Below the pieces are notes generated by a model. It was not told where the DNA came from. It worked only from the letters and a program-made list of their open reading frames with translations, and made no database searches. From Saccostrea cucullata (taxonomy: Eukaryota), in the NCBI RefSeq assembly GCF_032062105.1, contig NW_026927880.1, positions 62,001 through 126,000 on the forward strand: 64,000 nucleotides of DNA, in the 5' to 3' direction. Shown here in pieces: positions 25,737 through 28,700 of the stretch. The stretch's first letter is position 1. Every line of letters begins with the position of its first letter. The position numbers and the translations under genes were made by a program.

Positions 25737-28700
25737 AAAAAAAAAAAAAAAAAAAAAAAAAACTGATAAGACAGTCAAGGTGAGCAGACGTGTTTTCTGA
25801 TGCTCTTATCTCTCAATTAAGATTCTATTGGAGATAATAACTACACAATGGATAAAAATGGATCTTAGTGAAAATACAAGTTTTTTTAGATCAATTCTGG
25901 ACTCTTTTAGTGGACTCTCAAGTTCATTTGTTAACAGTCAAAATGAATCGACCCCAGAAGATGTGAGTATACCAGATTATATAAAAGTGAAGCTTAACAA
26001 TGAGAGTGTTACAATTACTTTTGAAAATGAGGGATATTCTAAAATATCAAGACTCCTGCAGAAGAACCTTATATTCTACAATCGGAGTAACAGAAATGGA
26101 TGGATTTATAAGACTCCTTGTAAATCTGTAACGGTAACGCTCTACAAATCAACAGACTCTCTCCATATCCAAGGAGATGCTGCTTTCACCTGGTACAAAA
26201 AATTCCTGCAAGAACTTGTAGATGATGTGGAACCTATCATCGCTGAAATATCTACTCAGCCACAGCCCCAGTTAGCTTCAACACCAAAAGCTATCGATAA
26301 AAAATGTAAAAACAATGAACTCGGTGAATGCAGTAACTGCAATAGTGCAGCTACGATAAAACAGCTGACTGAGACTGTTAAATTCCTCACCCTTGAGGTA
26401 GAAAAACTAAAAGAGAAATTGAACTCTAAAGATACCAAATTGTCTGTGTCTGCCAGTACGCAAACATACAAACTGGCAGTCAAACATAAGGAGACATCTA
26501 CAGAGAGGCTTACAACGTTGTCTAGCGGCATTTCTAGACATGTGCAGTGCAACACCATTAAAAGTATGACTGAAACGAGCACAAACACAGATATATGCCC
26601 CACAGAACGTGCAAAATTAGTTGAGGAAACACCCAAAGCCCAAAACACAACAAAAAATGAAGAAGAACTACAATTACGAAGTGGATCATCCCTCATAATT
26701 GGAAGTTCAATCCTGCAAAGAGTGAGAACTCGTGGATTAAATAAATCTGTGAAAGTTTCTACAAACAGAGGAGCCAAGGTATCGCATATAAAAGCAAAAT
26801 TGGCCAAAATGGATGTGTCACCCTTCCGTAATATTGTCATTCAGGCGGGTGGGAATGATGTATCAAGTAACCGCGATCCGGAATCAACTGAAAATGACTT
26901 CATGGAAATTATTTGCGATCTACAAAAACGGCACCCGGGAATACAAGTGTACCTCTCCGAAGTCTTACCACGTAGAGATGCAAATGTGAGTGAAGTGAAT
27001 GAAATTATTAGATATGTGTGCAAAGAGTACGGAGCTACTCTTATCCCAATGAGCAAATCTTTCAGAGGAAAAGGAAAAGGAGTCGAAAAAATCAAGCAAA
27101 TGAGCTCTACTGGAAAGACGGAATTCACTTGTCTGACAAAGGCACAGCGGAATTATTAAAGAACATCAACCAGTGTGTTCCTATTCTTAAACAAAAGGAA
27201 TACATTATCCATGACGATTCATTTACAGTTAGGAATTGTATTTGTTTCTTTTGCGGAGAAGAGGGCCATACAACTCGGAACTGTCGACATGGGAAAAAAG
27301 TGTCGTGTTGGCAATGTGGAAAAATGGGGCATAAGCAAAAGTTTTGTTCCTTTTAGGAAACCGGCAATGAAAGGAACGCCGTAAAACAAAATCGTGAAAA
27401 TACCGATCTTATTGTCTCGCATAACTTTTTCTCCCCAGTAAATAACAATAAATACTCAATTTTATATAATTTATGTGATGATTGTAACAATGTTGATTGC
27501 ACATGTAATCCCTACTTGTTTACCCCTAAAATTTTCAAAAAGTGTTTAAATGCTCAAAACAAATCTAGTAATTGTTCAACTGATTTAAATTCTCCATCAG
27601 AACTGACAGATACCTGTATGAATAAGGTAAACACTTTTTCTAATCTTCAACAAACAAATCTTAAAAATTCTTCTCCAAAATCTGATACTCAAAATAAAAT
27701 AAAACAAAATATATGTAAATCAAATCTAGGTTTAATGAAAAAGGGTCTACATTTTGTCAATTTGAATGTGTGTCATATTTTGCCAAAATTTGATGAATTG
27801 GTTTTGTATTTACAAGATGAGCTTTACATTGATATATTTTCCTTATGTGAAACATTTCTTAATGAAAATATTAATGATTGTATGATAAATATAAAGGGAT
27901 ATTGTTTTGAAAGAAAAGACCGAGTAGGAAAGGCTGGTGGTGGACTTGTTACATTTATTTCAAATGAATTAAAGTATAAACGCCGTAAGGATTTGGAAAT
28001 TAGCAATATTGAAACAATGTGGCTTGAAATTAATCTTAAAAATTCTAAACCTATTCTTTATTGTTCAGTTTACCGTCCACCATCTGCCCCCTCCTGCTGG
28101 GTAGATGATTTTGTCCAAGAGTTACAGTGCGCTACCTGCTGTGACGACCAGGAAGTGATTATTGCAGGTGATCTCAATATTGATATGCTCAAAGAACCCC
28201 CGCGGAGTTGGTCTTCTGCAATTGTAGATTTTGGACTAACACAATTAATTAACACCCCAACAAGAATTACTAATAGCTCTAAAACTCTTATTGACCATTT
28301 CTACACTACGCACCCTGCTAACATATGTGAAATAGCAGTACCCCCTGTAGCGATGTCTGATCATTATCCTATATGTGCCACACGAAGATCTAACAGCATG
28401 CAACGCAAAGGCAAACATACTGAAATACAATATCGTGACTTCAAAAATTTTAATGAAACAGATTTTTTGCTTGATTTAAACAATGCAAATTTTGATGAAT
28501 TAATTCAACTGCATGACCCTAATGACATTTTAAACTGTTTTTATGATATTTTCAATGCTGTAATCAATAAGCATGCAAAAGTAAAAACTAAGCGTGTGAA
28601 ATCTGAAATCCGCACTAAATGGTTAACTCCAGAAATAAATAATGCTAGGAATTTACGAGATCAATATCATAAACAGGGAGACATGGAGAATTTTAAGCTT

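Follow-up and report, generated by a model that had tools for sequence, protein, structure and literature searches.

A 64,000-nucleotide stretch of the Saccostrea cucullata genome (RefSeq assembly GCF_032062105.1, contig NW_026927880.1, positions 62,001 to 126,000 of the forward strand; this whole stretch is the window below, and positions are counted from its first letter) carries a long interspersed nuclear element (LINE) whose two open reading frames, denoted ORF1 and ORF2, lie in the same frame and are separated by a single UAG. The common frame, the conservation of the stop, and the conservation of a coding spacer beyond it that has no conserved AUG are established. We consider it probable that ORF2 is expressed by programmed readthrough of this UAG, yielding an ORF1-ORF2 fusion. 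This had been proposed in an earlier note made from the letters of the window. The conserved stop, the frame, and the Met-free coding spacer bear the proposal out, whereas the pseudoknot that was to stimulate readthrough and the generality of the arrangement among relatives do not.

The junction stop lies two codons beyond the last Cys of the second CCHC zinc knuckle of ORF1, and the base after it is G. From there the ORF2 frame runs through 87 open, AUG-free codons to its first in-frame ATG (27618) and stays open for 1075 codons in all, to a TGA at 30582–30584. The positions of the stop and of ATG 27618, the number of codons between them, and the continuation through the domains for apurinic endonuclease (APE) and for reverse transcriptase (RT) are exactly as the earlier note gave them. 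Its judgment that so long an open, ATG-free spacer is improbable by chance is also upheld (when the 261-nt spacer was dinucleotide-shuffled 20,000 times, 0.135% of the products were stop-free, and 0.025% were both stop-free and Met-free). Measured to the second in-frame ATG (27735), where APE starts, the spacer comprises 126 codons. Over this interval (27357–27734) the other two frames contain 9 and 21 stops, and a codon-usage score gives +5.6 bits for the ORF2 frame versus −15.4 and −15.4 for the others. The fraction of T at third codon positions is 0.46 in the spacer versus 0.44 in APE.

The position of the stop was compared among related ORF1 proteins. With the junction as query, phmmer found 543 proteins at E ≤0.001, and the relatives considered here are the best 150 of these 543. 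They are protein representatives of 50%-identity clusters, and their ends were assumed to be stop codons, some of which may be contig ends. The double knuckle typical of the family is carried by 95 of the 150; exclusion of six in which the second knuckle is damaged left 89. Most of these (74 of 89) end 1–7 residues past the last Cys of the second knuckle, and nine read on for 55–182 residues. In a tree of 61 knuckle regions (77 columns), an 18-member clade with support of 0.92 unites the window's element with P0011 and P0049; the alignment is too short to resolve more, and membership in that clade was not apparent for P0058, P0079, or P0083.

Two side observations concern these relatives. The residue that immediately precedes the ORF1 stop (27351–27353 in the window) is enriched for amino acids with only U- or C-ending codons (47 of 74, versus 77 of 211 other tail positions; p = 7e-5, or 0.006 when stratified by distance from the Cys, for sequences that are kin and so not independent); this bias could be a context effect of the −1 position. 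Some relatives also have additional domains, namely, NADAR (P0104 and P0130), OTU-like (P0121), and a weak PHD match (P0130).

For the junction as DNA, we examined a curated bivalve LINE library (PMC10294476) over approximately the first 400 bases of each entry and read junctions by eye. One oyster consensus, LINE_S.glomerata_6_cons (L2), has the end of the esterase, both knuckles, a four-residue tail, TAG followed by G, and then E-T-G-N-E. Of the 15 bases after the UAG, 13 are identical between the window and this consensus and both changes are synonymous, whereas the flanking codons have diverged. The consensus frame is open and Met-free for all 44 visible codons, Cys motif (see below) included. 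The two elements also share GCCG at +22 to +25 from the stop and a similar remaining length. They differ in that the tail past the knuckles is two residues in the window, the consensus spacer is 11 codons shorter before the Cys motif, and the consensus lacks both the pyrimidine tract that precedes the stop in the window and the 8-bp stem in register. The Gly-to-Cys distance in the spacer is 37 codons in the window, 26 in the consensus, and 22 in the relative P0011, and P0002 has a 17-codon deletion. Spacer lengths thus differ by whole codons, the pattern by which the earlier note had proposed to judge the spacer. The accessible part of PMC10294476 says nothing on this ORF1-ORF2 junction.

By these comparisons, the spacer is evidently conserved protein code in the frame of ORF1. 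It contains N-x-[YF]-x-[IT]-L and then C-x2-C-x4-C-x-C, a peptide that precedes every in-frame AUG; the four Cys are possibly a zinc site. P0011, a relative that has lost the stop, runs from the knuckles directly into N-x-F-x-I-L and the Cys motif (z = 5.2; one of 3000 shuffles as good), and the motif is matched in P0049 (z = 6.3) and P0002 (z = 5.2) as well. P0002, the closest relative (73% identical, known as protein only), is stop-free over the part of the spacer between the Cys motif and APE. It begins with a Met that aligns to a Leu in the window, has Phe at the position of Met 27618, and retains Met 27735. Among the nine read-on proteins, four show x-x-G-[NKQ] after a Y, K, L, or W (all a single base change away from TAG), a pattern defined post hoc that appeared in none of 20,000 shuffles; the stricter x-x-G-N-[ED] defined from the window is found in two of the nine (p = 0.0003). 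In P0104, a relative with a NADAR-type ORF1, the knuckles lead into an APE-like start within a single frame (E = 0.007) and the spacer motif is absent. The spacer has no Pfam match. A DNA pattern search of a genome collection gave nine matches, none of them a relative; another gave 14, six of which were classed as relatives, and yielded no locus. An Atlas search with the spacer gave no match of at least 0.9 (the best, at 0.86, 0.82, and 0.79, are leads only).

Because the stop, the frame, and protein sequence upstream of any AUG are all conserved, translation must either pass the stop or begin next to it. Readthrough has the best support, given a stop that is kept across the family and an oyster consensus in which UAG-G, the frame, and a coding spacer devoid of Met are all preserved. 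Of the three outcomes that the earlier note named as fatal to its proposal, two were open to sequence comparison, and neither check went against readthrough. If so, most ribosomes would terminate at the UAG and release the ORF1 protein, and a minority would insert an amino acid there, producing an ORF1-spacer-APE-RT fusion of ∼1575 residues. The ratio of ORF1 protein to polymerase would be set at termination, as in gammaretroviral Gag-Pol. We infer the decoding of the stop, the stimulating sequence, and the activity of the fusion as an enzyme. A broader reading, which we favor slightly less strongly but still consider rather likely, is that an invertebrate CR1/L2-group lineage with an esterase-plus-knuckle ORF1 makes its endonuclease-RT only as an uncleaved fusion, by way of a short, conserved readthrough signal in the RNA 3′ of the stop. 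As part of that reading, and held with the same confidence, sister subfamilies would have taken up either a fused ORF or a different junction.

The earlier note had drawn a pseudoknot around the stop from two stems (stems 1 and 2 in Table 1). All four of the arms that it quoted are present in the sequence, but the structure as drawn does not stand. Five folds around the stop, computed with ViennaRNA (a program that does not score pseudoknots), have z scores from −1.04 to +0.79. The 5′ arm of stem 1 occupies bases −8 to −1, upstream of the stop, and would be hidden beneath a ribosome paused there. In free RNA, stem 1 competes with stem 2 (pair probabilities of 0.70 versus 0.13), and the oyster consensus does not keep it in register, offering a helix of no more than 4 bp at a shifted position (by eye). 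Stem 2 (+6 to +9 with +22 to +25) has a pair probability of 0.33 if the RNA is free on the 3′ side alone; it is conserved in that the consensus has it equally far from the stop, one C-G pair having become U-G (by eye). Gly at +3 and Ala at +8 codons occur in four of six comparable sequences (by eye). With the 5′ arm of stem 1 under the terminating ribosome and stem 2 conserved, the signal is likely to lie 3′ of the stop. The cis signal is most likely the 15–25 bases beyond it (UAG-G, the first five codons, and the YGGC/GCCG stem), rather than the pseudoknot as drawn. As a separate observation, a possible long-range pairing joins 27368–27370 (in the Asn-Glu codons) with 27456–27458 (the Ser codon of the Y-S motif); at synonymous sites, a U-A pair of the window is C-G in the oyster consensus (two sequences, compared by eye).

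Several observations weigh against readthrough or against its generality. Only two junctions were seen as DNA, those of the window and of one consensus. A second curated family (the entry just before LINE_M.edulis_119) ends ORF1 in TAA-A and is visible for five bases further, and P0044, a protein similar to that family, stops again a few codons on. Given that junction and the further stop, this subfamily probably uses another junction. Conservation of the in-frame TAG-G, which the earlier note had proposed to test, thus extends to the oyster consensus and not to this family, and the UAG-spacer arrangement is evidently not universal among relatives. No further junctions were found in the library supplement (23 of 27 and 23 of 23 places seen), and junctions outside the visible ∼400 bases may bear on how general the arrangement is. 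Six of the 89 relatives stop 8–13 residues past the knuckle. Five of the nine read-on tails lack the motif, and eight of the nine lack a significant overall match to the spacer. In P0049, the Cys motif sits after a broken knuckle. Its spacer falls in the +1 frame if a single indel is assumed and stays in the frame of ORF1 if two indels compensate each other; testing both frames gave p = 0.15–0.61. Long fused homologs were found neither among 377 candidates of 642–2044 amino acids nor among 7999 candidates of 843–2405 amino acids. The latter search missed the family members P0121 and P0130, which are in its size range, so the absence of fused proteins is weak evidence. The five folds described above are no better than shuffles, and a strong 3′ structure is lacking, the conserved stem being 4 bp and 6 nt from the stop versus the 8-nt spacer of Moloney murine leukemia virus (MoMLV). 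Precedents also count here. In rat L1, with a ∼60-nt spacer that contains two in-frame stops, no fusion was detected (in the portion of PMC2241872 available), and the in-frame UGA and predicted pseudoknot of Candida albicans Tca2 did not direct readthrough in yeast reporters (from the available part of PMC2194720).

The main rival, which we regard as unlikely though worth serious consideration, is AUG-independent reinitiation at or just past the stop, giving a separate ORF2 protein with the spacer peptide at its N terminus; a reinitiation signal would then explain the conserved 15 nt. It accounts equally well for a conserved stop and a coding, AUG-free spacer. To our knowledge, LINEs encode no protease able to process a fusion, and Pfam found none in ORF2 or the spacer. 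Termination-reinitiation is used by L1 and SART1, and calicivirus reinitiation tolerates mutated start codons (consulted part of PMC5972666). However, the only in-frame near-cognate codons (CTG, GTG, TTG, or ACG) in the window's spacer are TTG 27516 and CTG 27603, and by eye none is at a shared position in the first 25 codons of the window and the oyster consensus. Moreover, reinitiation does not demand a common frame for ORF1 and ORF2, yet the window, the consensus, and P0011 all have one.

Initiation at a downstream AUG (27735 or 27618) through scanning reinitiation, entry of ribosomes at an internal site (an IRES), or an internal promoter, with the spacer as the relic of an old fused ORF, strikes us as improbable. 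Met 27735 is kept in P0002, at the usual start of APE, and there are precedents in a cryptic promoter at the Tca2 gag-pol junction (portion seen of PMC2194720) and in the IRES-like intergenic regions proposed for LINEs (portion seen of PMC3894237). Upstream of any AUG, however, a relic would have kept neither the Cys motif nor a pattern of solely synonymous changes in clusters that are <50% identical. In addition, ATG 27618 is not conserved, and seven out-of-frame ATGs lie between the stop and ATG 27735.

Removal of the stop from the RNA seems more doubtful still, whether by splicing with UAG/G as the 3′ splice site or by adenosine-to-inosine editing of UAG to UIG (Trp). The window's stop closes an acceptor-like pyrimidine run, which the oyster consensus lacks before its UAG. 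For editing, the 8-bp stem encloses the stop in free RNA and the read-on relative P0079 has Trp there, but the read-on relatives as a group show a mixture of Y, K, L, and W. LINE proteins copy their own RNA (cis preference), so that a spliced or edited RNA written back into the genome would erase the stop; because the stop persists, both routes are disfavored.

There is very little to recommend a start at the +1-frame ATG 27367, 10 nt past the stop, in which case G-N-E would reflect a start context (GGnA-ATG-R) and the window copy would have lost one base just after it. This ATG has a purine at −3, the copy already has one frame break, and P0049 fits the +1 frame with one event. Against this, the oyster consensus has AAC rather than AAT, hence no ATG, and its Cys motif lies in the frame of ORF1; P0011 would require a second, independent one-base loss. 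We reject this start for the window's subfamily, since it is absent from the oyster consensus. Finally, the idea that the element is of a single-ORF kind, with the TAG arising by nonsense mutation in this copy alone, which the earlier note had named as a way for its proposal to fail and to which damage elsewhere in the copy and the fused relative P0104 might lend color, is refuted by the 74 relatives that stop at the same place and by the UAG of the oyster consensus, and we give it practically no weight.

Readthrough at this position has a well-known counterpart. In gammaretroviral (MoMLV) and epsilonretroviral Gag-Pol, the readthrough stops lie just after the Gag knuckle (as given in the accessible part of PMC13517186), and the LINE resembles them in its single in-frame UAG-G just past the knuckles, between an abundant RNA-binding protein and a polymerase, with conserved in-frame code downstream that has no start of its own. 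It differs in being a non-LTR (long terminal repeat) element with no protease after the stop, so that the fusion would remain intact unless cleaved by the host. In place of an 8-nt purine-rich spacer and a stable, G-C-rich H-type pseudoknot wholly 3′ of the stop, just a weak 4-bp stem from +6 was found. By this analogy, the junction appears to work like gammaretroviral readthrough but is not a member of that class, having neither protease nor, as far as the folds show, such a pseudoknot.

Among retrotransposons, L1 and SART1 likewise have a bicistronic LINE RNA and need ORF2 at a low level downstream from ORF1. SART1 uses an overlapping UAAUG (PMC5972666 and PMC3894237, in the parts seen), and TART-B1 a +1 start 37 nt on (PMC5009743, in the part seen). 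Unlike L1 and SART1, the window's LINE has a single stop and a coding spacer of 126 codons and lacks an in-frame AUG nearby: there is neither an overlapping stop-start nor an AUG within ∼60 nt, and the nearest in-frame AUG, 261 nt past the stop, is not conserved. Tca2 (gag-UGA-pol) is similar in its single in-frame stop and predicted structure, and its pol is made from the full RNA (PMC2194720, in part); it is, however, an LTR retrotransposon with UGA. The 2A/StopGo elements (L1Tc, CR1/L2 group) also recode translation near the ORF2 N terminus (PMC3894237, in part). Those non-LTR elements mostly lack an ORF1, unlike the window's LINE, and no 2A motif (D[VI]ExNPGP; NPG) is present in the window's junction and ORF2, P0011, or P0002.

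The element is a full-length LINE of the CR1/L2 group, and the L2 clade label would follow from the name of its nearest curated relative. It has APE then RT, an upstream esterase/knuckle ORF1, and a 3′ hairpin with a short-repeat tail (Table 1). We found no long direct repeat (LTR) at its ends, no convincing target-site duplication around it, and no second copy within the window. Pfam matches are Lipase_GDSL_2 (E = 9.7e-10) and zf-CCHC (E = 2.3e-6) in ORF1, and Exo_endo_phos (E = 5e-12) and RVT_1 (E = 1.1e-32) in ORF2; neither the spacer nor ORF2 matches any Pfam protease family, aspartic proteases included. ORF1 relatives are 480–620 amino acids long and have the same domain layout. An SGNH esterase in ORF1 is shared with ZfL2-1 and vertebrate CR1/L2 elements (type IV; accessible parts of PMC3905857 and PMC4120745). 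Unlike type IV, the esterase here is followed by two CCHC knuckles, a combination missing from the visible rows of Table 1 of PMC4120745. In the part seen, that survey places esterase ORF1s in vertebrate subgroups only and describes swapping of ORF1s between lineages.

ORF1 of the window copy has a frame break that the earlier note did not mention. A hidden Markov model (HMM) of the family tracks one frame to ∼27066 and the knuckle frame from ∼27087; the frame opened by ATG 25858 terminates at 27157–27159, and the distance from that ATG through the TAG is 1499 nt. The break is either a mutation or an assembly error. As assembled, this copy therefore cannot bring ribosomes to the UAG in frame, and the question of readthrough is about the family, not the copy.

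Table 1. Coordinates of the LINE, its ORF1-ORF2 junction, and associated elements in the window
Feature	Positions	Strand	Basis or comparison
ORF1, ∼500 codons, frame-broken; N-terminal domain without Pfam match, predicted coiled region, SGNH/GDSL esterase, two CCHC knuckles	25858–27356	+	
Frame break within ORF1 esterase, A-rich stretch	27067–27087	+	Family HMM, ORF list
Double CCHC zinc knuckle, family-typical 7-residue linker	27243–27347	+	Pfam and sequence
Stem 1 of the earlier note, 8 bp, enclosing the UAG	27346–27377	+	Pair probability 0.68–0.70 in free RNA; 8 bp attained by 16 of 2000 shuffles
Junction UAG with G next to it, candidate for readthrough	27354–27356	+	Position kept in 74 of 89 relatives; UAG-G also in oyster L2 consensus
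ORF2 frame, 1075 codons, intact: spacer, APE (∼27735–28364), RT (∼29241–29903), C-terminal region	27357–30584	+	
15-nt element 3′ of the stop, coding E-T-G-N-E; candidate readthrough context	27357–27371	+	Oyster consensus comparison
Stem 2, 4 bp (CGGC/GCCG), 12-nt loop, starting 6 nt past the stop	27362–27381	+	−4.9 kcal/mol, weak alone
Out-of-frame ATG with five-codon ORF	27367–27384	+	Not conserved; ACG in oyster consensus
Spacer peptide N-x-[YF]-x-[IT]-L then C-x2-C-x4-C-x-C	27441–27506	+	In P0011, P0049, P0002, and oyster consensus
First in-frame ATG	27618–27620	+	Phe in closest relative P0002
Second in-frame ATG, at APE start	27735–27737	+	Met kept in P0002
3′ end: hairpin (30752–30783) and (TAT)8 tail (30803–30826)	30752–30826	+	Sequence read directly

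Other features of the element and its surroundings may be recorded. An A-run of ∼60 nt at 25703–25762, upstream of ORF1, may be part of the 5′ untranslated region or the tail of another insertion. The N-terminal region of ORF1 (25858–26250) has no Pfam match and is conserved in relatives, with a V-T-[LV]-Y...[LI]-H-I-Q-G...W pattern; it is, we presume, reminiscent of the TBP-like N terminus of RNase HIII. Just downstream from the LINE, 31989–32951 is a Lys/Ser/Glu-rich open frame of 320 codons, probably a host exon. Elsewhere in the window there is a young Gypsy-type LTR retrotransposon on the minus strand (51494–59061), with LTRs at 51494–52084 and 58471–59061 that are 99.7% identical. Its gag-protease-RT ORF (55471–58224) and RT-RNase H-integrase ORF (53187–55559) change frame inside RT, and it has an extra ORF with C2H2-like fingers at 52331–53122 (domains named by eye). 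The element interrupts a tandem array of ∼150-bp units (50694–51501 and 59062–59282); other tandem arrays are at ∼9852–10362, 49516–50132, and 61971–62233. A host exon, which we take to code for a von Willebrand A-like domain, is duplicated at 46492–47112 and 63371–63991 (90% identical).

In the open-access literature we found no report of ORF1/ORF2 stop-codon readthrough in non-LTR retrotransposons; subscription papers and Repbase Reports are outside that scope, and a curator's remark may exist. The accessible parts of PMC4120745, PMC3905857, PMC13343379, PMC11203168, and PMC10294476 do not mention readthrough at a LINE junction. Judged from sequence comparison, the feature is real and lineage-level, and would be a variant of a known recoding strategy. 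How LINE ORF2 is translated is a long-open question, in which the worked cases are reinitiation (L1 and SART1) or 2A skipping, and one that a review deems important and interesting (PMC3894237, in the part seen). One conserved UAG with a conserved signal of 15–25 bases in a LINE lineage offers a sharp and inexpensive test of a third route. If readthrough is confirmed, the junction would be a new natural eukaryotic readthrough element, and annotation pipelines would be starting ORF2 ∼87–126 codons late, thus missing a conserved Cys module. It would also mean that the RT of these elements functions while tethered to the ORF1 protein, and that a Gag-Pol-like strategy evolved in non-LTR retrotransposons, convergent with gammaretroviral control but without a protease.

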